This document shows, one piece after another, positions 719 through 44,588 of a DNA stretch of 64,000 bases (positions within the stretch are counted from its first letter, which is position 1; every line of letters starts with the position of its first letter). The DNA is taken from positions 18,225,648 to 18,289,647 of the forward strand of contig NC_092673.1 of NCBI RefSeq assembly GCF_964355755.1. Direction: 5' to 3'. The translations under genes and the position numbers were made by a program. This DNA comes from Antedon mediterranea (lineage: Eukaryota > Animalia > Echinodermata). The notes under the pieces are model-generated. The model was not told the origin of the DNA. It saw only the letters and a list, made by a program, of their open reading frames with translations, and searched no databases.

Positions 719-775
719 GTGTTGAACTATCCAAGCAAATTCGTGCACATGCGTTAGAAAAGAAATTAGATGAAG
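719..775 (+). CDS. Exon within Roc1, upstream of G3 (GVELSKQIRAHALEKKLDE)
   Basis: ttgtaaag acceptor, gtagg donor, phase 1-1, in frame with next exon. Confidence 0.6.
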
Positions 776-3700
776 GTAGGCACATTATTATGATTGTAGT
801 ACACTGAAAGTATCTATTTTTATTTCATCGTTTTTATTTATTATTTTATGTAGTAAATTGTATTAGTTTAAATGTATGTGTATTGTTTCTGGGGTCTTTC
901 TTGAGACAAGAAACTTGATTTCTTCTAGAGAAGACCCCAAATGATGGCTTATTACTAATGTTTTCATTTATGTACACATCTATATATTATACTGTATAAT
1001 GCCATTGTTGAACAAATAAATGTTTTTTGAACTTGAACATACTAAAACATCAAAATGTTATTTTTTATATCTGCAGATTTACAGTAGGTATATCAAGCAA
1101 TATTACAATAGTGATTTTTTTTTATTGTGTTTAAAAGGCAATGATAAAACCTGGGATAAAGTTGTGAATATTGCAAGGAAAAGTTTAACAATGGCAACAG
1201 GAAAGGTAGATGTGAGTGACAAAACTAGTATATGGGACTACGCTGGTCAACTAGACTACTATATAACACATAGGGTATGTTTGTCTTAATTATGCTCGAG
1301 TTTTTTCTTGATAGTAAAATCATATTTAAAACAACATGTGATTCGTTTACTTTTTATCTGGATTTAGATACAAGTAATTGTATCGGTACCATCATAATAA
1401 AAATTACAATAGAAGCTGTTGGGCAATAATAACCAACATAATACTGACAATAGAAGATGTAGGGCAATAATAACCAACATAATACTGACAATAGAAGATG
1501 TTGGGCAATAATAACCAACATAATACAGACAATAGAAGATGTTGGGCAATAATAACCAACATAATACAGACAATAGAAGATGTTGGGCAATAATAACCAA
1601 CATAATACTGACAATAGAAGATGTTGGGCAATAATAACCAACATAATACTGACAATAGAAGATGTTGGGCAATAATAACCAACATAATAATGACAATAGA
1701 AGATGTTGGGCAATAATAACCAACATAATAATGACAATAGAAGATGTTGGGCAATAATAACCAACATAATAATGACAATAGAAGATGTTGGGCAATAATA
1801 ACCAACATAATACTGACAATAGAAGATGTTGGGCAATAGTAGCCAACATAATACTGACAATAGAAGATGTTGGGCAATAGTAGCCAACATAATACTGACA
1901 ATAGAAGATGTTGGGCAATAGTAGCCAACATAATACTGACAATAGAAGATGTTGGGCAATAATAACCAACATAATACTGACAATAGAAGATGTTGGGCAA
2001 TAATAACCAACATAATACTGACAATAGAAGATGTTGGGCAATAATAACCAACATAATACTGACAATAGAAGATGTTGGGCAATAATAACCAACATAATAC
2101 TGACAATAGAAGATGTTGGGCAATAATAACCAACATAATACTGATAATAGAAGATGTAGGGCAATAATAACCAACATAATACAGACAATAGAAGATGTTG
2201 GGCAATAATAACCAACATAATAATGACAATAGAAGATGTAGGGCAATAATAACCAACATAATACTGACAATAGAAGATGTTGGGCAATAATAACCAACAT
2301 AATACTGACAATAGAAGATGTTGGGCAATAATAACCAACATAATACTGACAATAGAAGATGTAAGGCAATAATAACCAACATAATACAGACAATAGAAGA
2401 TGTAGGGCAATAATAACCAACATAATACTGACAATAGAAGATGTTGGGCAATAATAACCAACATAATACAGACAATAGAAGATGTTGGGCAATAATAACC
2501 AACATAATACTGACAATAGAAGATGTTGGGCAATAATAACCAACATAATAATGACAATAGAAGATGTTGGGCAATAATAACCAACATAATACTGACAATA
2601 GAAGATGTTGGGCAATAATAACCAACATAATACAGACAATAGAAGATGTTGGGCAATAATAACCAACATAATAATGACAATAGAAGATGTTGGGCAATAA
2701 TAACCAACATAATACTGACAATAGAAGATGTTGGGCAATAATAACCAACATAATACTGACAATAGAAGATGTTGGGCAATAATAACCAACATAATACTGA
2801 CAATAGAAGATGTTGGGCAATAATAACCAACATAATACTGACAATAGAAGATGTTGGGCAATAATAACCAACATAATACTGACAATAGAAGATGTTGGGC
2901 AATAATAACCAACATAATACTGATAATAGAAGATGTAGGGCAATAATAACCAACATAATACAGACAATAGAAGATGTTGGGCAATAATAACCAACATAAT
3001 ACTGACAATAGAAGATGTTGGGCAATAATAACCAACATAATACTGACAATAAATGAAACATGTATATTCTCTGTTTTGTTTGTGCCATAGCAAGTTTTTT
3101 ACAGTTTTGTATTTTAGTTATTTTCTATATCCAACAGTATTAATTAATATTAACTTTTTTGGTAGCCAACATTTGAAAAACCTATATTTCTTTATTATTT
3201 ATAATTATAAATGTTGTCTTTATTTAGGGCATAATATGTAAATCCTCTATGCACTTCACATTAAAAGTAACAAGTTTTCAATTTAAAAAAAACAAAAGAA
3301 ATTAAAAATAGGAACACTGAATGGCTACAATTCAGATCTGGTGATATTTAATTTAAAACATTTCATTTTTGTATTCATTTTGTTTCATTTTAAGTTATTG
3401 TTTGGACGCACCTTTATCAATGCAGTGTGCCACTGTTGTAAAAGTAAAGTTTCCAATAATTATAATATTCTATCTATTAACCTTTACATTGTATTTATAT
3501 CTTTCAGTTCTTCCTGACAAACAAAGTATCATACTGTGTTACGTTTAATGTGATGGATAACTTGGACGAACTAGCTAATCCACGATATTCATCAATTGTA
3601 AGTTCACCAAGTATTTCAGATTATTTTGTAAAATTTATTAACAGAGAATTGTTTATTTTCTAATTACAATTACATTTTGATTTTAGGATTCCCTAGGAAT

Positions 3701-6700
3701 GACTAATTTGGACATGAATTTGTTCTGGATAAGGTCTATTTATGAACATACTGTGCTACAACATGGTTCAGGAAACCTCATTTTAATTGATGGCAAGATA
3801 ATAGAGTCACCTCCTATCTGTTTGGTTGCTACCCATATGGATAAATTACCAGGGACAAAATTAGAAAAACAGATGAAGGTAATAGCTATAGTATACATTT
3901 ATAACTTAAATATTATTTGACTCTACACATGCACATTGCTTATTTATGAATGGTACATCAGAATGGATAAGCATGACATGAAATAAAAGAAGAAACCTTT
4001 TTTTGTATTGTTAATATATATATACAATTTTACTAATTAAAGGCTGAGAAAATGTTCATGCAGATGTTTGATGCAATGAAAGGAATGCCGTATGCCAAGC
4101 ATGTAGATCGTGAAATGTACATGGTGGATAACACTGTAAAGTCACATGAAGGTATTGAAAAACTTAAGCGAAACGTTGGTAGATACATGAAAGCAATGGT
4201 ACAGGAAGTTCCTGTAAAGTGGGTTAATTTGCAGGAAAAGTTGCAAATAATTGGAAAAACAAGATTGTACATTACCTTGACAGAGGTAAGAGTTTGAATT
4301 ACTTTTGTTTTCAACGTCTAGTTATAGAATTCTATTATTCAATATGTTGTGTGTGTACTCAGAATATTTACTTCAGAGGTGAATAATTGTAATCAAACAT
4401 TAATCAGTAATAGTAATTATTTAGTCAGTAATGCGGCAGTGAACAATCTGTATAGCACCTTGCAATAGTACTGTCCTGTTTAGTTATTTGTTTGTCAAAT
4501 GAATTTAGTGTAATAATTATATTAAAATGTCAATTCTGCATTAGGTTTCTGAGATTGCAACTCAATGTGGAATTCCTCAAGATGTTCTCGCCACTGCCAT
4601 AAGTTATCTGAATGTCACTGGAATTATCATGTATACTGGAACTAACGAGAAATTAAGAAACATTGTGATAACAAATCTTCACTGGATGATTGAAGTTTTG
4701 ACAAAAGTCATCACAGTATTTACACCAATGTTTGAAATGGTTAGTAAATGCATATTATATATAACTAGACTTGTATATCAGTAGGTCTATTACATTTAGA
4801 ATCTTTTTTTTTTGTACACAGAAGAAAGCAGATGATCGGAAGCAATTACAGAAGCTATGGAAAATGCTTAGCAATGAAGGAGTTCTTGAAGAGACGTTAC
4901 TCCGTTATTTGTGGCGAAACGAAGATGAAGATCTTTTTGAAATCTTTGTAGAATTGATGAAAGTTTTTCGTTTGCTCTTTGAGAAGACAAAGGTTGGCAA
5001 ATACACTTTTATTCATTTCTTTGATTAAGCTCTTACTAATCACTGGTACCAATTTATGTGTAATTGTGATGTTTATATTAACAGGGAATTAAAGAAGGTA
5101 ACCGGATATTTTTAGTTCCCTGTCGAATCAAAGTTGACAAAAAAGACATTCTGAAAGTATCAGCAGATGACAAACAAACAGTATCAATTTATCTGACCCC
5201 GACGGACTTTCTTCCTGATGCTGTGTACCACACATTGGTTGTTGCATTTCTTGAATTGATGACAGAAAAGGGTAGTGATGATTCAGAAGTGTTCCGGAAT
5301 CGTAGTGACTTTAGATTTAGTGGTCACACTATCAGTTTAGGTTCTGTCAAAATTAACCATGAAAGGGAAAAACCACATGCTTTAAAGGTATGAAATTAAT
5401 TACTATTTTTTCTATTAATTATATTCTAATTTCAATATTTAATAAAAATGTGTATATAAAGAGAAAACATAAAATCAATTAACGTTGAATATCGTATATA
5501 TATGCATTCTTCTGTATTACACACTTTTTTCTTTAATAGTACAACAAACCTTGCTTTACTAATTTTGTAACGATGTATTGTTCCCTCAAAAACATGACAA
5601 ATTAATTAAAAATTTGACGTTAAATAGCCCATATTGCAGTTTTATTAAAGTTATTCACTTCCGTAAAAAAAACAACAAACAACAGTAATGGTTTCACTTA
5701 TTCAAAACAAATTAAACAGTTAACAAAATTGTTTTTATCCAAATTTGGGTCAACGTGAATAACTATTATGTGACATTAAATAATAACATTTTAAGAAAAT
5801 AACTATTTTTGAAATTATTTTTTCAGGGGGACAATGCAGTACTGTATATCTTTAATGCAACACATTTCTTTTATATTTATGTTCCATTTCAATGTTTATT
5901 TGTTATTATGTATTTATCCATCTGTATTAATTATATGCATTGTCATAAGATACTGTGTGAATATTTTCCTTAACAGCTTGAAATATCACGCTGTAATCAA
6001 ATTCGTCGACGTATCAACGTAGCTGATGAAAGGTTGATATCTGAACCAGAACCAAGTGTCTGCATAGAGGTAATTAATATGAGATTATCACTTTTAAACA
6101 AATTTATCATGTTATATAAATCTATAAATAACATGTCATTCCCATGTTTTAGGTACTAAGCTATTTGAAAGAGCAACTAAAAACTGTCTGCAATATATAC
6201 AAGGGTATTGGCTACAATCTGCGTGTGTTATGCACTGCTTGTAAACCAGATGAACATCACTTAATTGATCTTGACAAGTGTTTGAAAAAGGATTCTGTTT
6301 CATGTGGAAGAAGAAAGGCTATGAAAACTGCTCATATAAAGCGCTTCTTTTCAACGAGTAAGTTGGTTTGGTTATTCTTTAATGTTGTCATCATCATACT
6401 TCATCCTAATGAATTCTCAATTTTTGTCAACAAAGATATCTTCATCTTACAAAATTTGCAATCATCTTAATTTGTACTATGAAACCTTTACTGGTCTATG
6501 TTAGACACCAGTGTATTGATATACTGTAGGCTTATGAAATATTTTTGTCAACTACTAGTTTGTCATCTTTACCATTCCATATTATTCGCATTATTGCCTC
6601 ATAATTTAGAGTTAAATTTGTTGTATCCTAATATTTGAGTAACATTTTATGTAAGTTTTTTATTTTTTATTATTACAAAATATGTTTTTGTATTACTGTA

Positions 6701-9700
6701 CTCTATACTGTATATAAGAATGAAAATTAGATTGATTAGTTAATTTGTTAGATGTATTTTATTCTACATAATTTACTACGATAGGCCTATTATTACTTTT
6801 GTAATTATTTATTTAGCTTTAATATTTTGTCTATATTCAGAATCATTTGAAGATTCTCGGACAAAACCAACATCTTGGGAAATGTCAGACTTACCAACCA
6901 AGTTCAATGAGTTGAAATATGATCTTGGAAAACACTATGATGGGGAAAGATACCTTTGGCTAAAATGTTGCTTATTTGATGTTATTCCTAGAGCATACCT
7001 CACACGTACTGATTTCAAAGCAACTGATCTGTTCAATGTCCTCCATGACAACGGTAAAATGAAACCAGATAATGTCACCATCCTTGTTGAGGTTGCCGAA
7101 GTATCAGGTTTACAGCTTGCTGTAGATCTTGTAAAGCAGTATATGGAAGATAACAACATCAAAGGTACTAGTGAAAAGTTATCCTCTTACCGGAAACGGT
7201 TATTTAGGGCATTGATTGAAGTTGGACCAGACGAGTTAAAAGATGTCATTGCTTATTATGGACTACAAAGGTTTGCTTTTCAAAACATGTGGGACGTAGT
7301 GTTTTACTTGGAAAGTGAATTACAGCTTGAGGATGAACCATTAAAATTAAATATATTTGCAGCATGTATTGGAATACGAGCAAGAAATATTTTATGTAAG
7401 TATTTAATTTTCTATTATAATATTTTATTTCTGTTCCATTAGGAAGAAAGAAAGATATGGATAGGTATCGTTAGACTGTTATGTTTTATCGTCGTCATTA
7501 CTTCATCATAATTATATCTAAGTCGTCATCACTATTCATCATTATCAATAAAAATAAAAACTATACTAATGCTAATATTATTGTTTTATTACATTATATA
7601 GGCCCTACTAAAGAACCAGTACCAAAGCCAGAGTTATTGCCAGCACCAGATCTTGAGTCAGTCTCAAAGTTTGAGTCAGAGCTAAAGCCAGTGCCAGTAC
7701 CAAAGCCAGAGTCATTGCCAGCATTAGATCTAGAGTCAATATTTGGAGGTAATGATATTTCTATTAAGTAAAATATCTATATATTATATAGATTGTTACT
7801 TATTCGTCTGTTGTATATACCAATTTATACTATATACTGTTAATATCTTAAGTATTGTTTTTGTACAGAATCATCTCAGAAAAAAATTCTGACAATGTTG
7901 GTACAAGTATCGAATTGGTATGACGAGCATGATTCACTTGATATGCTGAAGGTGTTGTGCAAAGATCTGATAACACCTTACTATGCTCTAAAGAAGGTTG
8001 ACACCACCATGGAGTTGTTTAATTTATTGAAACAGACTGGCCATCTTACCACTACCAACTTTAAAGTTCTTATCGATATCATCAGTGTCACCGGTACCAA
8101 AGGTGTTCTTGAGGCTAACAAATATCTGAAGAACAAGTTTGATGAATCTGACCATCTTGTTACATCTTTTACAACGTATCGACAGACGCTGATAGATTTC
8201 GGCAAAACGCTTTCCCAAGACAATTTTACAAAGCTCATCCATATAAACCATGTTTCTAGGAGACAATGTGACAACCTGTGGACTGTGATACTAGATCTTG
8301 AAGAAAGGGGCATCCTAAGGGAAGATAGGTTGCTGTCATTTATCGAACATTTAAAGGAAAATAAGATGGATGTTGCTGCTGAAAAGTTAGAAGGTTAATT
8401 TAATTCTCAGTACTGTATTATGTACTAAATAACTGATATAAGTTTGGTGGTTAAGTAGATATAGATCTTGAAATGGTTTAATTTATACTTTTTAAAATTA
8501 AACTCTATAATTATAATTAAAATATGGAGAAAACAGCTTTTTTTCCAGCAATATTTTTTTTAAACTTAAACTATGAAACACTTTTGCAGTATTCTCATGG
8601 ACCTGTCCATGGTATACTTACCAATTGTTTTGGTCTAAAAAATTCACTCTTCATGTCGAATGGGGTTCAATAAAAATGTTGTTGTTGTTGTTATCATGTG
8701 ACCCACAATCAAATGACAAGGATCAACTCAGGTATTTTATAATAGAACATTTTTTTTTTTTAAATTATGCAAATATTTCTGATAGATAGTGGGAAACTTA
8801 AAGACAGTTATGAGGCGATCAAAATTTGATCTGCAAATTAGCTTAAATACAGTATGCAAATTAGCTTAAATACAGTATGCAAATTACGGTGAATCTACAA
8901 GGTTACCATATCTCTAAATAGTAAACTAATAGTCAGAGAGAGTTGATTTTTTCACTGATTTATTCAGAATGTATATATTTATATTTACTCTAATGAAACA
9001 TTTTACGAAAAAATGACCGAAAGTACAACATTTGATCCTCCACCCAATTTCTCAATGCTTGCATACACAATATGACTAAAATGTCCCTAGAGACTTTGTT
9101 TTGCCCTCAAATATGTATTCTAAATATAAAGTCTTAATAATGTCTTCTGGTACAGGTATGTCTTTTGGTACTGGTACAGCTGGGTCTTGTGGTGCTGGTA
9201 CTAGTGTGTCTTCTGATGGAAAAAGAGCAAGAAATATTTTATGTAAGTATTTAATTTTCTATTATTATAATAAATGTTTTTGTATTACTGTACAGGAATA
9301 AAGATTAGATTGATCACCAAACTATGCTATGAAAACAGTTTTTCTTTCTATACAACTACTTGTGTATTTGATGCACAAATTTTACTTCTAAATTGTAGGT
9401 GCGTCTTATACACAGGTCACTTCCTCACGCACACCAAAAAGCCACACAAAGTTAACACTACAGCAGTAGCCTACAACAACTCTTACTGTAGGCCTAGCTA
9501 GTTAGTCTTTTTTTTTTATTGCAAACATTTCTTGCCTAGAGGGTCGATCACCACATAGTATTAAAGAATTTTTAAATTTAACAGTAAATTTTCATCCTAC
9601 GTATTAATTAATATTTACAGTGTTTGCATGAGGTATCCTACCCAGGCCTTCACCTACTCTCTACTCCTCAGAACTCGTGCATGCGTAACTAGATCAGATA

Positions 9701-12700
9701 TAATAAAAACACAATTATGGGAGAGTCCTTTAATTATGGTATTTATAAAATTTTAATTACACAATAAATAAATATGTCCCTTTATCACTGTGGTTTGTTT
9801 GATTACATCGCTACGTCAACAATATGGCATATTTCTGTAATCATGTAGGAAATAGTTCGTACATCAAGCGTCATCTAAAGAACTTGTTTTTAAAGAAGCT
9901 TCCTCTAGTTTATAATGTATATGGCCAACAGTGCTGGCACATGGTTAGTGTCCTACCGAATCGGTATGCATGCCTTTGAATGGGCAATAATATATATATA
10001 GTAAGCTAGCATATTTGTCTATGTATTTCTATTTTTATTGTTATAATTACAGTTTTATTGTATCGTCCTAGTTGACAGGGGCTGGTCAAGCACATCACAA
10101 GATGACAATTTTTTTACTTTTGCCTTTCCACTACACCCCTGTTATACTTATTTTTTTGTTATGTAGAAAGATTGAAAATAAAAATAAATAAATAAGATTT
10201 TCGTAATAGACATGTTTCAAATTAATAATGATATTGCTGGTTTATTATCAGCCCTCATCATTTAGATTGATTTAATAAAATGGTCATACCTACAAACAAG
10301 GTATATATTTAAATAATATGCTTAATTATGATTGTTAATAAATGTAGGCTAATAAAAGTAATTTAAGAAATGTGGGGATTTCTCTTTTCGTGGAAAGTTC
10401 ATTGAAGTAGAAGATGCCTGATACGATGTGATAAAGGCAATCAAACGAAATTACATCATCTTGATTCTAATAAATAGATCTGAAAAATTATTGTTTTATT
10501 AATAAAATGTCATTTGTTGTATTCGATTGAGACTTTTACCGTTGAGTACAGTTTTTCCGTTAAGTACTTATTTAACGGAGTATTTTGAGCGTTGAGATTG
10601 TTCTTAACGAAAAACCTTGCGTTGTCAACGTTTTCTATTCGAATGAATTTCTGTTGAGCACAAATTTACAATTCGAATACAAAAAGTACTCAACGAATGT
10701 TTATGTTAACAACGAAAGTTCCCATTCGAATACGACAATTGATATCATTGCTTTGATTGTAAAATCTTTTAATTTCGACCAAGAAATAAGTGTGTCATAA
10801 AAAATACTGATATTTCAGTCTCTTTTTGTATTTCATTATATGCTGTACCATTTTTGCTCTGTAGGCATGAGCTCATGGCCCAAACTGAAACACATATATT
10901 GGAAAGAATAAACTAAATTTAAAACAGATTAACAAGTAACACAAATGTTATTTTTTAACTGCAAAATTAAAAAATCTTTTGGTTTAAATGTTATTACTAA
11001 TTATACTTGGTGAAGTAATTAATTTGACATCCAAGTCATTGCATTAAGATTCAAGAACATAATTCTTTATAGAGATAATAAATTATTTAATTCACAAAAA
11101 CTGTAGAAAGAATAGAGCTAGATTTTTAGCTTTACATTCAAGTAGTGTAGATGAAGCTTGGTGGTTAACATGCTTGCCTTCCAATCCCAAGGTACGGGAT
11201 TCAATCCTGACTCTTCCAATTCCACTCCCTGAGCCTCAAGTTTATCCATCCCGTAATTGGCGAGTTGCTTGCCGTTAGATGCGTATGAAATAAAAAAGAA
11301 AAAAAATTGGTGATTTTGCTTTATTGTTAATATTTTACTTTGTTCACTCTCACAAATGTGTTTCTTTAAATATTAATTTGTTATCAGTCGAAAAGGATAT
11401 TCCATCTGCTATTGTTGTTCATGGTACAGACGTTAAGGAAGCTTACACTAAGGCCTTGAAAGAGGGATATGTTAAAGTCAACCTTGGAATGCTTAAAGTG
11501 ATTGGACAGGAAGGAGTAGGTAAAACATGCCTCATAAATGCCTGTCTTGGAAAGAAGTAAGTACTAGTTAAGGACAGTGAAATGAACTATGAAATATGCG
11601 TGTTAACTATTAAAAAATTATGATTCATAATGTTTACAGCACTTAAAATTGACCCAAGTTCAGTGTTGGTTTCAAATGATTTTCACTTCAGATTTAGCCC
11701 AAGCATAATGTTTACAGCACTAAGTGACTCAAGTTCATTATTGGTTTCAAATGATTTTCACTTCAGATTTAGCCCAAGCATAATCTTTACATCATTTAAA
11801 AGTAACCCAAGTTCACTATTGGTTTCAAAATAATGTTCACCTCAGATTTAGCCCACAGCACTTAAAAGTGACCAAAGTTCACTATTGGTTTCAAATGATT
11901 TTCACTTCAGATTTAACCCAAGCATAATGTTTACAGCACTTAAAAGCAACCAAAGTTCACTATTGGTTTCAAATGATTTTCACTTCAGATTTAACCCAAG
12001 CATAATGTTTACAGCACTTAAAAGTTCCACATATTGATTTCAAATTATTATACTTCAGATTTGAGAAGGAGCATAAAGTTACAGATGGCATAGCAGTGAT
12101 AAGAACTGTAACCACAACATGGACAGAAGATTATGACGATAGTGGTAAACATAAATTAATTTAGCTTTAGTATTTTTGTTATCCTTCTTGCAGTGAATTA
12201 TGATATTATAAACTATCAACAGATAAATTGGAGATCAATACCTCTACTGACATACAGTAGTATATTGTTGGATACTGTATGTTGATATGAACAGTCAAGT
12301 AACTTGACTGATTTCTGCATGATTTTTTTTCCATAATAAATATTAACATTAGGAACTCCCAGATCGGTAAAATTATTCCATTGACTACCTAAATTTAAGT
12401 TTCAATATTAACCACCAATTGATGTTTAGTTCCATTCCAAAATTGTTTATATCTACTAAGCTATCTTCTTTGTTTTCTACTCTTACTCCACCCTCTATTA
12501 ACCAACCTGAGCCACCTTTGTTTTTATTTCTTTTATTCCAGTATATATATTTCATGCAATTTAATCATCAAATATCAAGTTTTTCACTTAAATCAAACCT
12601 AGGGCATACAGAAATGGAAAACTTTTTTTTTTTTTTTTTCAGGTAATCCCTCAAAACAGTATACAAAAGTTGTCGCTGACAAACTGAGAGCAAAGAAAAC

Positions 12701-30700: not shown

Positions 30701-33700
30701 GTATCAATTGTAAATGTTATTGCTGCATACCCCACCTTAACTAGCACCATGGAGCTAACTCCAGTGATTTCAAGATATTTACCAATTACTTCATGTTTTT
30801 ACTGTATCTATTGTAAATGTTATTGCTGCATACCCCACCTTAACTAGCACCATGGAGCTAACTCCAGTGATTTCAAGATATTTACCAATTACTTCATGTA
30901 TTTACTGTATCAATTGTAAATGTTATTGCTGCATACCCCACCTTAACTAGCACCATGGAGCTAACTCCAGTGATTTCAAGATATTTACCAATTACTTCAT
31001 GTATTTACTGTATCAATTGTAAATGTTATTGCTGCATACCCCACCTTAACTAGCACCATGGAGCTAACTCCAGTGATTTCAAGATATTTACCAATTACTT
31101 CATGTATTTACTGTATCAATTGTAAATGTTATTGCTGCATACCCCACCTTAACTAGCACCATGGAGCTAACTCCAGTGATTTCAAGATATTTACCAATTA
31201 CTTCATGTATTTACTGTATCTATTGTAAATGTTATTGCTGCATACCCCACCTTAACTAGCACCATGGAGCTAACTCCAGTGATTTCAAGATATTTACCAA
31301 TTACTTCATGTATTTACTGTATCTATTGTAAATGTTATTGCTGCATACCCCACCTTAACTAGCCCCATGGAGCTAACTCCAGTGATTTCAAGATATTTAC
31401 CAATTACTTCATGTATTTACTGTATCAATTGTAAATGTTATTGCTGCATACCCCACCTTAACTAGCACCATGGAGCTAACTCCAGTGATTTCAAGATATT
31501 TACCAATTACTTCATGTATTTACTGTATCAATTGTAAATGTTATTGCTGATATAAAAACAAGCTACTCAGCTGCTCTTGGCACATCGACACAAATGCCTT
31601 TTACTTATTATAGTATTTGAGGTCATTTATTTTGAAATGGATTCTATGAGAATTATTTGTATATTATAGTTTATTGTATATTGTAAATATTTTTTATAAC
31701 ATTTTTTACAATTTTTCCTAAATTTTGATTGTCTATTTCTTTTTCTTTTCAAGATGAAACAAAACCTTCAAAGAAGGAAGAATCAAACCAAGGTAAAGTA
31801 GACATTAATTATGTGTGCCAACTGTATTAAAATATTCTAAACCAAAATTGTCATCAATTGTCTTATTCTTAATGAATAATAATATTCAAATATTAACTGG
31901 TTTTAGGTAAGTGGTTCAAAGGTCAAGGTGATCTAGAGACTAAAAAATTTCCCAAAACATCACCAGCCATTAGTTTAGAATAATGTTAGCAGCTAAATAA
32001 GAAATGAAATGAAACAAAAACAACTCTTATAAATGGTCAATGGTCTGCCTTTCTTAAACATTCTCTATTTTCTATTTTAACTATTTTGTTTGATATTTGT
32101 TAAAGATGTATAAAAACATGAATAATTTATTAGTCCATTTTACAGTTTCAATACATTTTTTTCACTTCCATAGAAAAAAAAAACAAGCGAACATAATTAT
32201 TTATTCAAGTAAAATAATTTTGTTTTCGATTTTTGGTCAAAGTGAATAAATATATGTGATACTATGGCACAAAAAAAAATGTTTAAACATTGTTTTTGTG
32301 AGACAATATATCTTTAATAATATCTGTTTTTTAAAGATTTTTTTAGAACTTGTTACATCTTATTCTTCTTGTAATGATATAGATTTACGATGTCAATATG
32401 CGTACTTCTAATTTCTTACATCACATTTTAATCATTAGCTCAAGGCTAGCAGGAGTGACTTCATTAGTCTAAAATTGACAAAAATGTGTAAATTTGAGAA
32501 ATGTATAGTACTTTATTTGTTATGTGTCTATACTTTAACAAATATATGTTGCTGTAACTCTATCTATCAAAATAAATATTAATTTCATTTTCAGAGAAAA
32601 AAATAATAATTTTAAAAACTTCGATGAAAAAATTAATATATCATTTTTGCCTTACAGAAATTTCAGAGAATAATTTCCGGCAACTGTTAACTGATACAGC
32701 AGCATGGTTTGATGGACTTGGATATCTCAAAATATTGAAAGTTTTATACAAAGACCTTCTTTCAAAATCTAACGTTGAGGTGGAAAGAGCTAGAAGTGTT
32801 TGGGATCTGCTACAGGATTTAAGAGCTTCAGGAAGTTTGAGTACATCAAATCTTACTCTTCTATATGACACAATAACAGTAACCAAGCAATTTGGCTTCC
32901 AGTCAAACGTTGAGAATCAACCTCCAAAAGATATTAAGGATCATGTAGTATCAATGTTGACACCATTCAGACAGAAGGTTTATCAACTGGGAGTAGAACT
33001 TACGAAGGATGAAGTATCAACACTTGCCAGGTTATTTAACAATATATTGGTAAAGACATATCAAGACAGCTGGAGTATGATAATGGACTTTGAACATAGA
33101 GGGATCATTGATGAGGATTTCACAAAGATGGTTGTGTTTCGTAGAGTTTTAGAACAAAATGGAATGACAAAAGCTAGGAAGATTTTCATTGATGGTTGGT
33201 TGGTTTATTTGTTTTTAGTTCATCATCATGGTTCATTGTTAAAACATATAGTACATACTGTAGTACACTTCAATCAAGTAAAAGTACTGTAACAAATTAA
33301 ACAATTTAGGATTCAAATTATTATGATGTCCCTGTCTGTCTGCTATTATAGTTGATTAAGGATATCAACCAACATTCTGTTAAATGTCAATTAGGCTGAA
33401 TTAAATGACAAGTTAGTAAAATAACAATAATATGCTCAATGAGTCCAATGGAAAATGAGCTGAACTGAAAAGTGTGTGTGTATTCCATGATATTATCCCT
33501 ATACATCAGATTGACCCAAACCTTTGAAACATAATAATAATCTGCATTATAAAATTGTGAATGACTCATAATTCCTGTAAAGCCCAGCATACCATTTGAG
33601 GGTCAAAGTACCGACTCTGAGGCTGATTCAGACCTTTGCTATTGCAAGAGGATCATTAAGTTGTTTAAGAAAACCACAGGTTGACAGCATACCCATCACC

Positions 33701-36700
33701 ACCTCAGTGCCAATTTATGCAGCCGGACACTTAAACCATTATAAACTTAAGTTTAGATTATATGGCAGCATAAATGTTGTAAAATTATAGAGATCAACAC
33801 TTCTGCCTATCCCAGTTTATTTACATTTCCTAATTAAGAGCTTGTTTCAATGACAATTAGCTTACTGAAACACTTCTTTTAATCATCATCCATCCTACTG
33901 TAGGTGGATTGAAAAATCCAGAAGTCATCCAGTAGTCATACTCTACATAATTATATGTATTCTAAATAAGTATATGTCTTCTGGTACAGGCATGTCTAGG
34001 TCTTATGATGCAAGTGTGTCTTCTGGTGCAGGCGCATCTTCTGGTGCAGGTGTGTCTTCTGATGCAGGTGTGTCTTATGGTGCGTAAAAAAACAACATTT
34101 CCCGCACAATTTCACATAAATATCTGTATTCTGACAGATTTGCAAAATGTTTAGTTAACAAATTTAAAACTTCAAACACTTTACAACTTCCCAAACAAAA
34201 GTTGCGGAAAGAAGTATAAAGGAAAAAAAAAGAAATCTTATAATCACAATGGAACCAATCAAGTTGATGATATAACTATTTATTACACCTAAGTAGATTC
34301 TTGTCATTTTATTGAACAATTGGGTCACATGATGGAAAAATAACTGAACTAAATGTTATATACAATACATGTACTGCAATTTTGCGGTGGAAATTACTAT
34401 TTAAATCTTTTTGCTATTATAGGTTATTTAAAGTTGATGCTTATTTTTGCTTAACAATAAAAATGAATGAAATGAAAATTAATGTTGGGACTGAAATATT
34501 GATGGTATATTTAACCACTTTAGATTCAGATTTGCATCAAGATCACTATAGCCGACTGAAAAAAAACATAGCATCCTTAGGTTTAATGATAAGAAAGAAT
34601 GTTCCTGGAGACGGCAATTGTTTTTTCTATTGCATACAAGATCAATTGAAAAGAATGCAACTGCCTGTACAACCTGTAGCAAACATGAGAACTGAACTTG
34701 TAGAATTCTTGCAACAATTGGTGAGACTGAAACTTTTTACAATACTATACAGTAAATGTGCAATAAAATATTACTATATAGGGGTTAATTAACACTTTAC
34801 ATATTTTAGGATAACGACGACCCACTTAAGGAACATGTAAATGATCATTACCTACATAACCTTGAACAAAATGGAACTTGGGTTGATGAAGTTGCAGTGC
34901 GTGCAATGGCCAGGCTTCTCAAATGCAACATAAGGATAGTTACAAGTCAGAAACAAAGTTCTGAATCTGGATATTTGTTCAATGACATCAAAGGAAATTT
35001 GAACTCTGATGACCAGCAGCTTCTTCTTGGTCTGATAGGAGAGGATCATTATGTTAGTTTAGGTAGGATATATGGATGTTGTCACGAACTCCTCTCACGT
35101 ATGTTTCCGAGCGGTTGAAAATACTTTAGGAACTCCCTTGTGACATAAAAGTATACACACAAAATCCACAAAGTTGTAAAATAACTAAAAAACAAAGCTT
35201 TAATTTCAATCAACTTCAACTTTTAACAATCCAGTAAGCACTTTAAACAACAGCTTCACAATGACTTTACAATATAATATCCAACCTCTAATCCAACCTC
35301 TAATCCAACCACCTTCTTCAAAATAAATGCTTCAATCAAAAATCCTTCTCCCACTTACAATTGTCATACTTCCCCTTATATACAATATGTTCATAACCTT
35401 CTAGATCATTCCTTATACTTCTTCTTATTCTATTGATTACAGTTTCTATTAATAGGACTTCTGGAATGTTCTTGATTGTTCTTATTAATTATACATGGTT
35501 TCTTAAATCAAAACATCTAATTCTAGAATGTTCATGTAAATACTATGTTACTCTATATGTTAGGGAATGGTAATTTATTACACTCCCCCCTCTTTCTGAG
35601 CTCAAAACTCTTTCTTGGAGTTTTGAGGGGCAAGTATACACGGACGTGGCAAAAGTTAACCCACTCCTATTCTATAAAACTTAAATACGCCATAATAACA
35701 TACAACATAATCATTAATAATTACTAATAATGAACAAACAATATTCATGTAAATTTGTCGGAATGGTTCACTAACAATTACTGACATAGGAATCATAAAA
35801 TCCTTAAATTTAGTTTTATACTTTGAGGCTTTACAATACTCTGTCAACGAAATATCATGTGAAAATTTCAAAACACTATTACTGCAATGATATAAAACCA
35901 CTAATTTCTCTATGGGTTCTGTCTGGTGTTTAGTAAAAACATGCCTAAATAAAATTCCGTCCTTACAGACCGTCATATCTTCCCGACATAAACCTTCTTT
36001 CCTTTCAATATCTTCCCGATGTAAACGTTCTTGGTTATCCATCATCTGCTGCATCAGAAGACTCTGTTGTTGTATTTGTTGCTTCATTAACAACACCAAA
36101 AAGTCTGTACTGCTGTACACTTTACCGGATATTGTTGTTGATTGTTTATCAGCCATATTTTAAATCTGGATGAGGGTCTTGTTACTAGTTAATCGTAGTT
36201 ACCGAGACGTTCACAAGTCTACTGTTCCAAATAAATAATGTACTGTTCTTAAAACAATGTTTGTGTACTTACGATTAAACAAAACGTAGCACCACGGCTT
36301 CCGTAAAATCTCACAGTATCGTAAGTACCGCTTTAACAAAATATCAATAAAAGTACAGTTGATCCTAAAACAGCCACCAATCTATGGCAAAATACAATAG
36401 ATCAAACTGCTACCACAAAATATCACAACCGTAGATAAATACACAGTTAAGTCGAACAGTAGATCGAAATAACCGCTGCCACCAAATTAGGCTGAACACC
36501 GCTGCCACCAAATTAGGCTGAACACCGCTGCCACCAAATTATGTCACGAACTCCTCTCACGTATGTTTCCGAGCGGTTGAAAATACTTTAGGAACTCCCT
36601 TGTGACATAAAAGTATACACACAAAATCCACAAAGTTGTAAAATAACTCAAAAACAAAGCTTTAATTTCAATCAACTTCAACTTTTAACAATCCAGTAAG

Positions 36701-39700
36701 CGCTTTAAACAACAGCTTCACAATGACTTTACAATATAATATCCAACCTCTAATCCAACCACCTTCTTCAAAATAAATGCTTCAATCAAAATCCTTCTCC
36801 CACTTACAATTGTCATACTTCCCCTTATATACAATATGTTCATAACCTTCTAGATCATTCCTTATACTTCTTCTTATTCTATTGATTACAGTTTCTATTA
36901 ATAGGACTTCTGGAATGTTCTTGATTGTTCTTATTAATTATACATGGTTTCTTAAATCAAAACATCTAATTCTAGAATGTTCATGTAAATACTATGTTAC
37001 TCTATATGTTAGGGAATGGTAATTTATTACAATGTCTAGATCCCCCGAATTTGTTGTACTCTTATACTTTAAAAATGTCAGTACCATTACTATTTTGGGG
37101 GAAAATAGCCCCAATTCAGATAGACCTTTCAGTGTCTATCTGTCGGATGTAATTGAGCTGCATCTGTTACTTTAGCTGATCAAGCCCGGGAAAATCATAT
37201 GCATAATGTGTCAAATATGATGGTCTCTTGTACAGAGACGCAATGAAGTTTTAAAGTAGCCTACATTGATGAAACCAGTGAAATTTTTAATTGTACAAGT
37301 TACGTATAAACAATGTGTTTCAAGCAACACACAAAACAACACCCTGCATGAACTTGTAACACAGAAAATGGATAATGAATGTCGTAACTGAAAATTTCCA
37401 GGAATTACCCTGAGAATTATCGCTCTATTTTACCAATCCAACTTTCTTGATGTTTCAGAAAGAAATGGAATGACAAAAGCTAGGAAGAATTTCATTGATG
37501 GTTGGTTGGTTTATTTGTTTTTTGTTCATCATCATGGTGCATTGTTAAAACATATAGTACATACTGTAGTACAATACAATCAAGTAAGAGTACTGTAACA
37601 AATTAAACAATTTAGGCAGATTCAAATTATTATGATGTCCCTGTCTGTCTGCTGTTATGGTTGATTAAGGATATCAACCAACATTCCGTTAAATGGCAAT
37701 TCAGCTGAATTGAATGACAAGATAGTAAAATAACAATAATATGCTTAATGAGTCCAATGGAAAATGAGCTGAACTGAAAAGTATTTTTGTATTCCATGAT
37801 ATTATCCCTATAAATCAGATTGACCCAAACCTTTGGAACATAATAATAATCTGCATTATAAAATTGTGAATGACTCATAATTCCTGTAAGGCTCAGCATA
37901 CCATTTGAGGGTCAAATTAGTACCGACTCTTTACTATTGCAAGAGGATCATTAAGTTGTATTTTTATTTTATGTCTTTAGGCAATGTGGCCAAGGATTAC
38001 TAATAGTGAATTAATCACTGTCCTATCAGATAGGTGGTAGTCCTCCTGATACAGGGGCTATTTTGTGAACCTGTTCACAGGTTGAGAGCGTACCCATCAC
38101 CACCTCCATGCCAATTTATGTAGCCGGACACCAGTTTATTTACATTTCCTAATTAATAGTTTGTTTCAATGACAATTAGCTTACTGAAACACTTCTTTTA
38201 ATCATCATCCATCCTAGGTGGATTGAAAAATCCAGAAATCATCCAGTAGTCATATTCTACATAATTATATGTATTCTAAATAAGTATATATGTCTTCTGG
38301 TACAGGCATGTCTTTTGGTACTGGCACATCTGGATCTTCTGGTGCAGGTGTGTCGTCTGGTGCAGGTGTGTCTTCTGGTGCAGGTGTGTCTTCTGGTGCA
38401 GACGCATCTTCTGGTGCAGACGAATCTTCTGGTGCAGGTGTGTCTTCTGGTGCAGGCGCATCTTCTGGTGCAGGTGTGTCTTCTGATGCAGTTGTGCCGT
38501 CAGGTGCAGGTGTGTCTTCAGGTGAATATCAAGGCATTAGAACAAGGCTTTATTACCTTTCAATGTTAAGTGAATGTAGTTGTTTATGCAGTTAAAATCT
38601 GTATTTATTAGGCAACCTTAAAATAACTTGAGTTTAAGTTTTTCTTTGACTTTCTCCAAATCTATTCCGTTCATTTCTTTTTTAGGTAGACCTGTGAAGC
38701 AAAACATTATACATTAATCCTGTTTGTTGCTTAAACATTCGTTCCACTCTGTGGTTCACACAATATCAGCTTAGATATTTGAACTTTCCAAAAACTTTTA
38801 TTTATTAAATATTTCACTGTTATTTAACAGTTTATATTAATTTTTAATAGTCAGTAGTTATCGTTTAGCATACTTAAAATAACATCTTGTAGCTAGTTGT
38901 ACTAATAATAAATGTAATTTAATTATTTTACAACATTCCAAAAACTTTTTTCTACAGATGGGGAAGATGAAGATGAATCGCTCATCAAGAAACCAGGTAT
39001 AATCCATCTGTAATCTTTTTTCTGTTAATAACATGTGTATAGATACTTGTTTTATTTATCTTTTTTTTTAATGACTTGATGAAAACTATTGTTAAATGTA
39101 TTAGTGTATTAATCAGCAATTTGAAATTAGTATAGTAGTTGTTTTTTTAAATAGATAAATGTTGTATCATTCCTTGTAAATTTGATATCATTATATAGTA
39201 TTATTTGTATGTACAAAGGCCAGCAGAGTTTCCCTGCTAGATAATAACATTTTTAATTAATTGAAATATCCGTGCCTTTTGATTAAAACAACTAAATAAT
39301 ACTGTATACTGTACATGCCATTCAAACTATATATTTTTTATTTAATCAAGGCTTTGGTACACATTTTAACATAATATTAAAATGGTTTATGTTTAGCATT
39401 TAAACATTTATTTACTTTCAATAACATAGTAACAAAATAAAAGGAGATAAATAATATGACAAAGTAACATTGAAGGAGGACTTGTGTTGAGCAAGCCTGA
39501 AACATAAAATAAAGTGACTGTGTTCATACTTTGTTAACCTAAATAGTGCATACTATTACACACCATGTGACCCACAATAGTCCAATCAAATGACAGGAAT
39601 TATTTAGGTGTTTTATAACACTGTATACTGTACTGTACACATTCAAACTATATATTTTTTATTTAATCAAGGCTTTGATCCACATTTTAACATAATATTA

Positions 39701-40862
39701 AATGTTTTAGGTTTAACTGTGTTTATACTTTGGGGTTAGAGTGTTTAATTGTTTAATTATTTCTCACCATATCTATTACTTAATGAGCTTGCTTTGTTGT
39801 TATTTCAGGTACACATCATGGTGGGTAAGTATTTTCCACATATGTATTGTTATTTGATAAAATTAAAATATATTTTTTGTTAATAAATGGGCAGTTTTTC
39901 ATTTCATTTATTTTGCCACATAAAATTTATAACAATACAATTAAAAAAAAACAAAATAAAAAAGATAAAAGAGATTACTTCGGTCATCGGTGACGGTGAC
40001 ACGTACGAACAATTGTAGAAATAATTTATCCCTACTAGTATGATATGATATAAATAACATTTTCAGAGATAATCTGTTTGATGTATTTGTTAAGTTTCCA
40101 ATATCATCACCTTGAACTGTGACCATGTAAAATTCCTGTGTATAATGAAATAAAGTTTATCTGTATCTGTACACTCCGCCTCCCCACAAAGGCCAGCAAG
40201 ATTACCAAAAGCGTCTTGTGGCTCTCCGCATCATTGTTAAAAGTTCAACTACGATCATTTGAAAGATCAGGTTGAAAGAAACAACAATTTTAATGTTAAT
40301 ACTTGATTAGAATTTTAATTATTTAATTGTACTTTTTTAATTCTAGTCGAAAGCACAAGAAACGTAGCAAACGTTGCAAGTTGTTATAAGGTATAGTATT
40401 TAACTTGTGTATATAACAGTTTAAAAAATTGAATTTGTTTCTAAAGTCATGCACTGTTTTTCTATAAAAAAAAACTACTGTAGTTTCAATATGTAAGAAA
40501 TCCTTTGTTTTCTTATAAAATGCTTTTTTTTGTAGATTAAATTATGTAAAATTTTCATTTTGATTACAGCTCACTGGTGGATAGTTACTGTAATTTGGTT
40601 TATTCTATTGGCAACCTTTGTCATCTTAATTATTATATATGACGGCTTAGCAGCAATAATTGGCATTGGTATTGGATTGTTGGTAACTTTTGGTGGTGGC
40701 TGTATCTGGTGTGTGAATAAGAAAGTCACCAAGTCTCGTACTCAGTCAACAAACGCAGCAGCAGACGGACAGACAGTACGCTATTCTGAAAAAAGGAGAG
40801 ATACTGTAAACAGACCTTGTATAAAGAATATCAAAGATAGATGTAAAATGAAAAATATGTGA
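719..40862 (+). CDS. Multi-exon Roco-family gene (5' end outside window): Roc-COR, DEDx2, DEDx2, Roc-COR, DEDx2, OTU, membrane anchor
   Basis: 36 hand-called exons with GT-AG boundaries total 7385 nt and stay in frame from 719 to TGA at 40860-40862. Roc motifs WDYAGQ/THMD and GQEGVGKT/TDGI/WDHGGQ; OTU motifs GDGNC and HYVS. Could be two adjacent genes split near 9.3-11.3 kb. Confidence 0.7.
1138..1274 (+). CDS. Roc1 exon with G3 motif (SIWDYAGQLDYYITHR)
   Basis: Roc-type WD(F/Y)AGQ..YY.TH signature; AG acceptor, gtatgt donor. Confidence 0.9.
1405..3050. repeat. Intronic minisatellite, 41-bp unit, ~40 copies
   Basis: Unit acaatagaagatgttgggcaataataaccaacataatactg; period measured 1446 to 1487. 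Confidence 0.97.
3508..4285 (+). CDS. Roc1 C-terminal exons 3508-3597, 3687-3878, 4043-4285 (G4 ATHMD, start of COR VPVKW)
   Basis: FFLTNKVSYCVTFN, FWIRSI, PPICLVATHMD, EVPVKWVNL; all phase 0 with canonical splice sites. Confidence 0.88.
4545..6357 (+). CDS. COR1 exons 4545-4739, 4822-4992, 5085-5387, 5977-6069, 6153-6357
   Basis: COR-like motifs YLNVTGIIMY, GVLEETLLRYLW, FLVPCRI, FLPDAVYHTLVV; continuous frame across GT-AG introns. Confidence 0.85.
6841..7395 (+). CDS. Exon encoding tandem DED-like pair 1
   Basis: FNELKYDL..LKCCLFDVIP..DLFNVLHDNG..N..ILVE then LSSYRKRLF..WDVVFYLE, resembling caspase-8/cFLIP DEDs; phase 1-1. Confidence 0.78.
7602..7748 (+). CDS. Pro/Glu-rich linker exon with internal duplication PVPKPExLPAxDLES x2
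   Basis: tatag acceptor, gtaat donor, phase 1-1. Confidence 0.7.
7869..8393 (+). CDS. Exon encoding tandem DED-like pair 2
   Basis: LDMLKVLCKDLI..MELFNLLKQTGHL..NFKVL then FTTYRQTLIDFG..WTVILDLEERGIL; phase 1-1. Confidence 0.78.
9156..9242 (+). CDS. Gly/Ser linker exon (GMSFGTGTAGSCGAGTSVSSDGKRARNIL), chimeric
   Basis: tacag acceptor, gtaagt donor, phase 1-1; 5' part matches exon 38306, 3' part matches end of exon 6841-7395. Confidence 0.6.
11148..11306 (+). mobile_element. Probable tRNA-derived SINE
   Basis: Degenerate A-box-like tggtggttaac and B-box-like ggattcaatcc, A-rich tail. Confidence 0.45.
11388..11556 (+). CDS. Roc2 first exon with P-loop (YTKALKEG..LKVIGQEGVGKTCLINACLGK)
   Basis: GxxxxGKT preceded by the P..I...G..AY..AL.EG segment typical of invertebrate Roco proteins; phase 1-2. 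Confidence 0.92.
11628..12060. repeat. ~78-bp degenerate tandem repeat (~5.5 copies) built on the splice acceptor of the next exon
   Basis: Recurring cttcagattt...agcataatgtttacagcact, similar to the true acceptor cttcag|atttgagaaggagcataaagttacag. Confidence 0.85.
12059..12707 (+). CDS. Roc2 exons 12059-12144 (FEKEHKVTDGI, G2) and 12643-12707
   Basis: Switch-I T-D-G-I motif; phases 2-1 and 1-0 fit neighbouring exons. Confidence 0.82.
12967..13684 (+). CDS. Asn/Asp/His low-complexity exon (NHNNDD)n inserted inside Roc2
   Basis: tgttag acceptor, gtaat donor; open frame (ORF 12997); phase 0-1 bridges exon 12707 (phase 0) to exon 14270 (phase 1). Confidence 0.7.
14270..16276 (+). CDS. Roc2 exons 14270-14418 (WDHGGQ), 15364-15453, 15625-15804 (GTHKS), 16025-16276 (VPLKW)
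   Basis: NIWDHGGQLIYHGLHR, MFMTLQALYIVVFDLS, PTILIVGTHKS, FAIEN, DVPLKW; same intron positions as Roc1. Confidence 0.9.
16466..16970 (-). mobile_element. Truncated inverted copy of the hAT-type element at 19729-21393
   Basis: Starts cagtgatggcgccag (TIR-like); reverse-complement similarity to 21335-21393 and about 20560-20965. Confidence 0.75.
16976..17121 (+). mobile_element. Possible SINE 3' fragment with (tacaaa)n tail
   Basis: ccttaggcaagatgctttactctcattgcc resembles SINE core sequences; short tandem tail. Confidence 0.35.
17332..19625 (+). CDS. COR2 exons 17332-17517, 17800-17994, 18246-18548, 18654-18725, 19412-19625
   Basis: LTFLYDLGEIVY, VLDPMQLV, GILEEDLLLELW, FFVPLRL, YLPDVLF; canonical splice sites; frame continuous. 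Confidence 0.87.
19729..21393. mobile_element. Non-autonomous hAT DNA transposon (1665 bp)
   Basis: TIRs cagcggtggtgccag / ctggcgccaccactg (13 of 15 match); 8-bp TSD cctgacgt at 19721-19728 and 21394-21401; no transposase ORF. Confidence 0.88.
21441..31548. repeat. Intronic satellite, 103-bp unit, ~98 copies (10.1 kb)
   Basis: Unit begins gctgcataccccaccttaactagcaccatggagctaactcc; period 21555 to 21658; no spacers. Confidence 0.98.
31754..31792 (+). CDS. 39-nt linker exon (DETKPSKKEESNQ)
   Basis: Strong polypyrimidine tract plus caag, gtaaag donor, phase 1-1. Confidence 0.7.
32658..33194 (+). CDS. Exon encoding tandem DED-like pair 3
   Basis: FRQLLTD..WFD..LKVLYKDLL..WDLLQDL..GSL..SNLTLL then LTPFRQKVYQLG..WSMIMDFEHRGII; clearly homologous to exon 7869-8393; phase 1-1. 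Confidence 0.8.
33155..34080 (+). repeat. Intragenic segmental duplication, copy A (copy B 37460-38520)
   Basis: Near-identical exon end, intron and Gly/Ser exon in both copies (compare ORFs 33387- and 37630-). Confidence 0.92.
33990..34079 (+). CDS. Gly/Ser linker exon (SSGAGV-type repeats)
   Basis: tacag acceptor, gtgcgt donor, phase 1-1. Confidence 0.6.
34524..35062 (+). CDS. OTU-like cysteine protease (deubiquitinase) domain, exons 34524-34720 and 34810-35062
   Basis: VPGDGNCFFYCIQDQL (catalytic Cys), GTWVDEVAVRAMA, LGLIGEDHYVSL (catalytic His). Confidence 0.9.
35080..37031 (-). mobile_element. Internally deleted Gypsy-type LTR element (1952 bp)
   Basis: TG..CA LTRs 35080-35582 and 36542-37031, near identical; 4-bp TSD atgt; PPT (ctcccccctctttct on +); tRNA-Leu-type PBS; minus ORF 35656-36156 with integrase-like remnants (KDGILFR, LVV, EPF). 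Confidence 0.92.
37459..37500 (+). CDS. 42-nt exon (ERNGMTKARKNFID) derived from the duplicated DED exon end
   Basis: tgtttcag acceptor, gttggt donor identical to 33195; phase 1-1. Confidence 0.5.
38306..38521 (+). CDS. Gly/Ser-rich linker exon with 18-nt (SSGAGV) repeats
   Basis: tacag acceptor, gtgaat donor, phase 1-1; ORF 38290. Confidence 0.72.
38958..38996 (+). CDS. 39-nt exon (DGEDEDESLIKKP)
   Basis: ttttttctacag acceptor, gtat donor, phase 1-1. Confidence 0.68.
39809..40389 (+). CDS. Alternative C-terminal micro-exons 39809-39824 and 40347-40390 encoding GTHHGGRKHKKRSKRCKLL* (polybasic plus CaaX)
   Basis: tatttcag/gtaagt and ttctag/gtatag sites; 16+44=60 nt; TAA at 40387-40389 directly after CKLL. 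Confidence 0.62.
40570..40862 (+). CDS. Terminal exon with two hydrophobic (transmembrane) segments and basic tail
   Basis: ttacag acceptor, phase 1; WWIVTVIWFILLATFVILIIIY-DG-LAAIIGIGIGLLVTFGGGCIWCV-NKK; TGA stop. Confidence 0.72.
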
Positions 40863-42730: not shown

Positions 42731-43155
42731 ATTACAGTTTAGATATCTGTTACATAATTAGTATACACCTTTTGATTGGTAGGATATGGGAACAAAAAGT
42801 GGGGTTTTTTAAAATATTGATACAATTAGAGATGCCCCTACAATCTCAATTTTTTTCAAAGTGTATATTGCAGCTATAAACATTTTAAAGTAAAGTAATA
42901 ATTTGATAAAAGAAAAAAAAATTCAAATTAATAAGGGGACGCGACAGGATATGAGGGCAGCAATTAGGTGTTTGATATAATGATACTGATGATAATAATG
43001 TTGCTATTTGTTTGTATTAATAACTATGGTAGTTATGATTAATGATGCTAAATTGTATTTTAAATCAAGAAATCATGTAATAATTAGACCATGACAACCT
43101 AAGTGTATTGTAACAAAGACAACAACATTTTCCACTCAACAACACCATTTTCTAC

Positions 43156-44462: not shown

Positions 44463-44588
44463 TTTACAAAAAATGACCAAATTGATAATGATAACTATTA
44501 ATGATGTGCAATTGTCAGTCTGTGTTAACTGTCACCCTTTTTAATTCATATTTTGCGATATCAATGTTGTCATTCTTCATGCTGCATT

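Follow-up and report, generated by a model that had tools for sequence, protein, structure and literature searches.

A candidate Roco gene of the crinoid Antedon mediterranea with two Roc-COR modules, tandem DED pairs and an OTU domain in one splicing frame

C. tepidum Roco, human LRRK1 and LRRK2, MFHAS1 and DAPK1 each contain one Roc domain followed by one COR domain and dimerise between chains. They carry leucine-rich repeats (LRR) and/or a kinase, but no DED, OTU domain or membrane anchor. C. tepidum Roco forms COR-mediated dimers and passes through a nucleotide-dependent monomer-dimer cycle, and the part played by dimerisation in driving the Roco GTPase cycle, including that of LRRK2, is debated (PMC6337361). 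Further articles describe a death-fold domain after the COR of DAPK1 (PMC6320773), a Trichoplax set of at least 17 ROCO genes that carry CARD or death domains, three having an extra Ras-like domain (PMC4104024), and fusion of Roc to TIR in Aplysia and to caspase in Owenia (PMC9334734, PMC11463336). They also describe algal ROCO genes that lie in clusters, have undergone exon shuffling and in part encode membrane anchors (PMC3341825, PMC11378527), with some C-terminally anchored members in Ectocarpus that were proposed to be immune receptors (PMC3341825). In these accounts no second COR is described for the Trichoplax or Ectocarpus proteins, and the shuffled units are LRR exons rather than DED or OTU blocks. 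Here we describe a candidate gene on the + strand of a 64-kb window of Antedon mediterranea NC_092673.1, to which all positions below refer. We consider it a member of a large, fast-shuffling crinoid Roco family in which two distant Roc-COR modules share one splicing frame and likely one transcription unit, with a probability of roughly 0.55.

Hand reading and a script check identified 33 AG/GT-bounded exons between 719 and 40862 (Table 1) that form a single frame of 2,332 aa, the sole stop being the final codon. Inclusion of two optional phase 1-1 exons encoding glycine/serine (G/S) linkers resulted in 35 exons and 2,448 aa and left the frame open. A first-pass annotation of this DNA had counted 36 exons in one frame; the open frame stood, although the 36th exon was not found. 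Random intronic pieces of matching length were open in 0-3.4% of draws, and none of 2,000 pieces was open at each of the three DED-exon lengths. Thus, the open frame of the exon model is not explained by chance. The spliced exons read Roc-COR, DED pair, DED pair, Roc-COR, DED pair, OTU and hydrophobic anchor. Local profiles built from relatives returned RocC-CORA-CORB-DED2-DED2-RocN-RocC-CORA-CORB-DED2-OTU on the spliced model, and Pfam, run on 23 of the 33 exons singly, matched DED on three, COR-A on three, COR-B on one (weakly), Roc on two (weakly) and OTU on two. Together with hydropathy, these results bore out the domain order that had been proposed, and at the DNA level both the domains and the open frame are genuine. 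Exon 1 begins in phase 1 within Roc domain 1, and the gene begins 5′ of the window, with the P-loop and N-terminus of module 1 upstream of base 1. Both of the Roc-COR modules that had been claimed are therefore present, although the first is incomplete in the window. Pfam found neither a kinase nor an LRR on the 23 exons, but since the P-loop and N-terminus of module 1 lie outside the window, the label 'kinase-less' is uncheckable at the 5′ end of the gene.

Close matches were all from crinoids (RefSeq models of Antedon mediterranea and Anneissia japonica), and the relatives fell into two subfamilies, one per module, referred to here as type 1 and type 2. Most relatives have one module with varied partners, including ankyrin repeats, DED pairs, ZU5, death, kinase and HEPN domains and an anchor. 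Support for the tandem arrangement comes from a sister model, XP_071947615.1 (P0009; P numbers denote the proteins compared), an Antedon RefSeq model of 1,681 aa that reads Ank-RocCOR-RocCOR-anchor. Its two modules are in the same order as those in the window and are 89% and 83% identical to modules 1 and 2, respectively, and it contains two Pfam COR-A stretches. Like the window, it has a type-1 module followed by a type-2 module, an acidic repeat insert in Roc2, a Roc2 G4 without Asp and a C-terminal anchor; unlike the window, it has no DED pairs and no OTU, and it has N-terminal ankyrin repeats, a region that in our gene lies outside the window. In a quick tree of 34 rows, from which proteins aligned over <400 residues, including P0008, were excluded, module 1 was sister to the first module of P0009 and module 2 grouped with the second, with Shimodaira-Hasegawa-like approximate likelihood ratio test (SH-aLRT) values of 99 and 90, respectively. 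Splicing of exon 10 directly to exon 14 introduced no stop, and the product aligned to the P0009 junction with a one-residue gap and a shared phase. Among 48 proteins compared, the closest match to exon 14 was an internal exon of P0009 (42/55 residues). The same 36.2-Mb chromosome-scale sequence holds another Antedon model, XP_071948782.1, in which a type-1 COR runs into a type-2 Roc exon. DED-pair-to-Roc joins occur in P0017, P0057, P0129 and P0138, and P0001, which is closest to exon 13 (83%), extends 509 aa beyond the exon-13 equivalent. From these comparisons we conclude that tandem Roc-COR gains real support from P0009 and that one transcription unit probably joins both modules. Our view of a full form with all of the DEDs, the OTU and the anchor is more tentative, at somewhat less than even odds, and a shorter form ending after exon 13 is probably also produced.

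The main alternative is that the window contains two genes in tandem. The first, of type 1 and probably Ank-Roc-COR-DED2-DED2, would end at a TAA at 8396-8398; the second, of type 2 and Roc-COR-DED2-OTU-anchor, would start between 8400 and 11388, perhaps at the ATG in the optional exon 9132-9242. The shared frame would then be a by-product of phase-1 domain borders. Indeed, introns at all domain borders are phase 1, as are donor 8393, donor 9242 and acceptor 11388. The annotation had stated that no stop lies between the modules; the phases at 9242 and 11388 agree with this, and the statement holds only if donor 8393 is used, as read-through past it meets the in-frame TAA three bases on. A number of observations weigh against a single gene. 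Of the seven proteins that carry an exon-13-type DED pair, six terminate 0-3 residues past it, which is where the TAA lies in the window, and A(A/T)TAAA hexamers that resemble polyadenylation signals follow at 8497, 8516 and 8669. One-module genes of either type are the rule among relatives. The order COR1-exon 11-exon 12 is native to the one-module P0049 on a different chromosome, and the best matches of exons 9-13 are likewise one-module genes from a different chromosome; module 1 with its DEDs may therefore constitute a whole gene. P0009, an automatic prediction with one member on one contig, could be an annotator's fusion of two genes, and P0020, which is near-identical to the second module of P0009, is annotated without module 1. 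P0008, at 94-100% on exons 22, 24, 25 and 26, is a fragment of 333 aa that extends over exons 22-26 only and has a gap of 22 aa within exon 23. The optional exon 9132-9242, whose in-frame ATG could start a second gene, has one of the weakest acceptors in the gene and is dispensable for the frame. Two modules plus DEDs occurred in 0 of 188 proteins compared, and the full architecture was found in no database protein: among 23 matches of 924-2,942 aa, only P0009 had both modules. In the other direction, both module types are likewise joined in P0009 and in P0092, exon 14 is closest to an internal exon of P0009, and AATAAA is common in this AT-rich interval (15 in 3 kb). On balance, we judge two genes to be somewhat unlikely; if there were two, the locus would hold an ordinary pair within the crinoid Roco family.

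Contigs of four sequencing runs were compared with 6100-11600. Run X1, taken as RNA by guess only (share 0.16), gave exon-shaped cover outside repeats. Two of its contigs end at 7395 and one begins at 7870, with different letters beyond; these are 86-87% paralogs. One 157-nt contig lies in exon 11 with one difference. None of the 15 contigs examined, out of 59 from this interval, showed 8393, 9242 or 6357 spliced to 11388. X1 cover drops near 8393 and is nil in 8492-8675, where the uncovered part carries no weight. Much of 8400-11380 matches high-depth repeats, and a scan of this interval found no convincing strong phase 1-1 exon. An assembly artefact fusing paralogous copies would fit the numerous near-identical paralogs and long satellites. 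However, contigs of run X2, which may be the source sample, match 8192-8861, 9474-9782, 9753-10061, 10032-10548 and 10709-11046 with 0-2 differences each, although none spans the whole junction interval, and P0009 occurs in an annotated assembly with the same module order. We consider such an artefact very improbable.

The two Roc-COR modules differ in their nucleotide-binding motifs. Module 1 reads WDYAGQ at G3 and THMD at G4, with the guanine-reading Asp present; P0009 and P0002 read GKEGAGKT at the P-loop position that in this gene lies 5′ of the window, and the nearest relatives have ankyrin repeats N-terminal to Roc, a region beyond this window. Pfam matched COR-A on exon 6 (E 2.2e-7) and, weakly, COR-B in module 1 (E 0.008), and exons 4-8 are 92-98% identical to P0009. 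Module 2 reads GQEGVGKT at G1 (exon 14), WDHGGQ at G3 and THKS, without Asp, at G4, and the COR-A match is on exon 22 (E 3.8e-5). The Asp of the G4 motif THxD reads guanine. Its loss is common to the Antedon clade of module 2, which reads THKG or THKA. The G4-G5 region is variable in Roco proteins (PMC6337361) and varies widely among the relatives compared. Judging from these motifs, module 2 may be less guanine-specific or may act mainly as a partner. Sequence-profile and fold matches were to the Roc-COR of C. tepidum, M. barkeri and LRRK proteins; in an AlphaFold model of the type-2 paralog P0013 (predicted template modelling score 0.39, Roc part poor), Roc-COR matched LRRK1/2 and C. tepidum Roc-COR. 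The modules belong to distant subfamilies and are 24% identical to each other, yet they have intron positions in common. Origin of the two modules by recent intragenic duplication was rejected, given this 24% identity and the one-module relatives of each at 75-83%.

Several further features were observed within module 2. The exon 12967-13684 encodes a 239-aa Asn/Asp/His repeat inside Roc2, between G1 and G3, and P0009 and P0020 have a related acidic repeat with a different unit at this place. At 11647-12051 the exon-15 acceptor region is repeated in tandem as four degenerate copies; the N-terminus of model P0020 is apparently translated from this intron-derived repeat, which is likely an annotation error. 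Inverted repeat copies of ~400 bp (16557-16938 and 20570-20966, 79%) surround exons 22-26 and form a possible recombination boundary; the bracketed exons are those with the close match to P0008, the fragmentary model.

Three exons encode DED pairs by Pfam, one of them weakly (Table 1), in agreement with the six DED-like domains that had been annotated. The AlphaFold2 model of exon 13 consists of twelve helices with a predicted local distance difference test (pLDDT) score of 87.9, and all of the listed Foldseek matches were to the tandem DEDs of caspase-8, cFLIP and viral FLIP (MC159), with template modelling (TM) scores of ~0.6-0.7. These proteins have the twelve-helix tandem DED fold in common with exon 13, at 13-19% identity in the structure matches; the tandem DEDs of caspase-8 are fused to a caspase, whereas those in the window are fused to Roc-COR. 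Exon 11 matches the last DED pair of P0001 at 81%, and at 45% it matches P0013, whose modelled DED pair matches the caspase-8 tandem DED. Two packed six-helix death folds are hence indicated for exon 13 by the model, for exon 28 by Pfam, and for exon 11 weakly by Pfam together with the 45% relative. A death-fold match of the helical exons, whose absence had been named in advance as telling against the annotation, was returned by both Pfam and Foldseek. The FL motif and RxDL charge triad of DEDs serve filament assembly; by eye, the helix-2 motif of the DEDs in the window reads LKVL or LKCC. Similar tandem DED blocks are carried by the NACHT proteins P0068 and P0173, that of P0173 being 65-68% identical to exon 28, and Roco and NLR genes thus appear to share DED exons.

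The OTU domain was matched by Pfam on exon 30 (34810-35061, E 1.8e-7, 32.2 bits versus a cut-off of 23.3) and on exon 29 (E 0.046). Its Cys and His are kept, and the GDGNC and HYVSL motifs align with the OTU of Sinanodonta woodiana (E 1e-18, 33% identity). The residue at His+2 is Val; many OTUs have Asp or Asn at this position. A sequence search of the PDB with exon 30 gave chance matches only. The last exon has a hydropathy peak of 3.19 with one or two predicted membrane helices, and matches the P0020 C-terminus at 85% across 73 aa. An OTU domain, above the Pfam cut-off and with its Cys and His, and a C-terminal hydrophobic stretch, the predicted anchor, are therefore found as annotated.

Table 1. 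Exons and repeats of the candidate gene, as window positions.
Feature	Position	Strand	Description
Exons 1-4	719-775, 1138-1274, 3508-3597, 3687-3878	+	C-terminal part of Roc domain 1
Exons 5-10	4043-4285, 4545-4739, 4822-4992, 5085-5387, 5977-6069, 6153-6357	+	COR-A and COR-B of module 1
64-bp direct repeat	6638-6701 and 9230-9293	+	87.5%; brackets DED block; left copy is a leftover exon-11-type donor
Exon 11	6841-7395	+	First DED pair; Pfam DED weak, E 0.0048 (6843-7394)
Exon 12	7602-7748	+	Pro/Glu-rich linker
Exon 13	7869-8393	+	Second DED pair; Pfam DED E 1.7e-9, two stretches (7871-8392)
Optional chimeric exon	9132-9242	+	Phase 1-1; G/S-linker start plus 94% copy of exon 11 end
Exons 14-17	11388-11556, 12059-12144, 12643-12707, 12967-13684	+	Roc domain 2
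Exons 18-20	14231-14418, 15364-15453, 15625-15804	+	Roc domain 2
Exons 21-26	16025-16276, 17332-17517, 17800-17994, 18246-18548, 18654-18725, 19412-19625	+	COR-A and COR-B of module 2
Exon 27	31754-31792	+	Short linker, after a 12.1-kb intron holding a 10-kb satellite
Exon 28	32658-33194	+	Third DED pair; Pfam DED E 1.3e-8, two stretches (32660-33193); 75% to P0017
Exons 29-30	34524-34720, 34810-35062	+	OTU domain; motifs GDGNC, HYVSL
Optional linker exon	38285-38521	+	G/S-rich; phase 1-1
Two short linker exons	38958-38996, 39809-39820	+	Of all modelled exons, the 12-nt one is least certain
Last exon	40570-40862	+	Hydrophobic stretch of ~41 aa, basic tail, stop codon

Both the DED block and the OTU region look like products of recent shuffling. 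The 64-bp repeats flank exactly exons 11-13, the block that is absent from P0009, so one recombination event would interconvert both structures, in either direction. Two copies of a ~950-bp block (33146-34083 and 37452-38399, 89-91%) enclose the OTU exons; the block consists of the end of exon 28 with its intron and of a G/S linker, which is out of frame in the first copy. P0017 has the same COR2-DED2-anchor tail without an OTU; the position of the OTU within the duplicated block, together with this tail, points to a recent OTU insertion. The best match varies with the exon, a pattern that a recombining cluster would be expected to show. A plausible history is that a type-1 module first became positioned 5′ of a type-2 module within a gene cluster, that the pair was then copied, and that phase-1 exon blocks (DED pairs, OTU, linkers and anchor) were later swapped in and out by recombination. 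The same features would also fit a decaying or haplotype-specific recombinant, that is, a chimera formed recently in a birth-and-death cluster, with a frame that has stayed open but without a selected full-length protein. The exon-wise best matches switch among P0009, P0001/P0002 and P0008, the nearest model for exons 22-26 is fragmentary, and the introns hold leftover donors, a frameshifted linker copy, an LTR (long terminal repeat) element and a 10-kb satellite; disruption affects at least half of the ROCO loci in Ectocarpus (PMC3341825). By contrast, ~7 kb of coding exons contain no stop or frameshift, their splice sites are intact, and the OTU Cys/His and the G1 and G3 motifs are retained. 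We therefore regard such a recombinant as quite unlikely. Separately, the possibility that the G/S repeats are inverted linker exons was rejected, because two of the three copies have in-frame splice sites on the + strand.

The full architecture appears to be undescribed. One-module crinoid Roco-DED models, such as XP_071948801.1 (DED2-Roc-COR-DED2-anchor) and XP_071964214.1 (Ank-Roc-COR-DED2), have Roc-COR subfamilies and DED and anchor exons as in the window, but contain one Roc-COR and no OTU. By local profiles, a Roc follows a COR in 5 of the 188 proteins compared, a set that was chosen by score and gives no frequency (P0009, P0092, P0047 from a mussel, P0169 from Hondaea, and P0127), and the amphioxus model P0156 has this order by Pfam and motifs. 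A second Roc after the first COR, as in the window, is thus present in Branchiostoma belcheri XP_019630255.1, Hondaea fermentalgiana GBG34516.1 and P0127, and the partial Sinanodonta woodiana model KAL3888019.1 (P0047) reads COR-OTU-Roc with the OTU compared above. These other two-module models are predictions that are distant from the window (three are at 21-27% to its modules), with LRR plus GT4 or TIR partners and no DEDs. Because tandem Roc-COR recurs in other gene models, it is not unique to this locus. Our architecture search for two Roc-COR plus DED plus OTU accordingly found the full set in no protein and the two-module core in P0009. Literature searches, in which subscription papers were mostly not covered, turned up no account of two Roc-COR on one chain, or of Roc-COR with DED or OTU, although supplementary architecture lists (e.g. 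that of PMC8195603) could contain one. The novelty that had been suggested would consequently apply to the full set, while two-module Roco models are known in other lineages. The wider family comprised 10,463 clusters at E 0.001, the best 150 of which were examined. Atlas look-ups gave generic Roco clusters only, and scanning metagenomes with exon 24 returned no relatives. Eight Roc or Roc-COR proteins (P0031, P0039, P0042, P0048, P0056, P0075, P0151 and P0182) are fused to a kinase, OGFOD2-like, HEPN, caspase, KIX/TAZ, Macro or GT4 domain, indicative of a broad effector-swapping family.

Tandem DEDs seed assemblies of caspase-8, FADD and cFLIP. The encoded protein would most likely serve immune or death signalling as a nucleotide-switched scaffold held at the membrane, with an OTU that edits ubiquitin. 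The C-terminal anchor would hold the protein at the membrane with the remainder in the cytosol, and the Roc-COR units would, as they do in other Roco proteins, act as a nucleotide switch controlling whether dimers or oligomers form. Switching would expose the tandem DEDs, thereby seeding DED filaments with caspase-8- or FADD-like partners, and the OTU would trim ubiquitin chains on the complex. An intramolecular Roc-COR pseudo-dimer, modelled on bacterial Roco structures, is speculative; ~410 residues (DEDs plus linker) separate the modules in the window and none do so in P0009. In its most elaborate form, which we consider rather doubtful, a canonical and a G4-degenerate Roc-COR would make up an anchored single-chain pseudo-heterodimer whose intramolecular switch frees six DEDs and which has a built-in OTU editor, with phase-1 block swapping in crinoids and several origins of fused two-module proteins (crinoid, amphioxus, mussel and protist). 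Such a pseudo-heterodimer would replace the between-chain dimer cycle of LRRK2-type GTPases, and with two different Roc-COR on one natural chain each site could be mutated alone, unlike in a homodimer. The locus also shows an apparently undescribed crinoid Roco-DED expansion with phase-1 shuffling of whole-domain exons, like the algal ROCO immune-receptor candidates.

Mobile and satellite sequences were also observed in the window. The intron after the OTU contains a small LTR-type element (35080-37031) with two ~490-bp terminal repeats that are 97% alike; its 167-aa minus-strand frame had no Pfam match, and the element is probably non-autonomous and recent. A Ty3/Gypsy-like LTR retrotransposon, so assigned by domain order, occupies 58910-63863 and is split over three frames, with gag zinc-knuckle, protease, reverse transcriptase, RNase H and integrase parts. 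Minisatellites were found in intron 26 (21520-31549, 97 x 103 bp) and intron 2 (1406-3051, 40 x 41 bp), and downstream of the gene at 41238-45647 and 55254-56934 as arrays of 62, 69, 81 and 43 bp.

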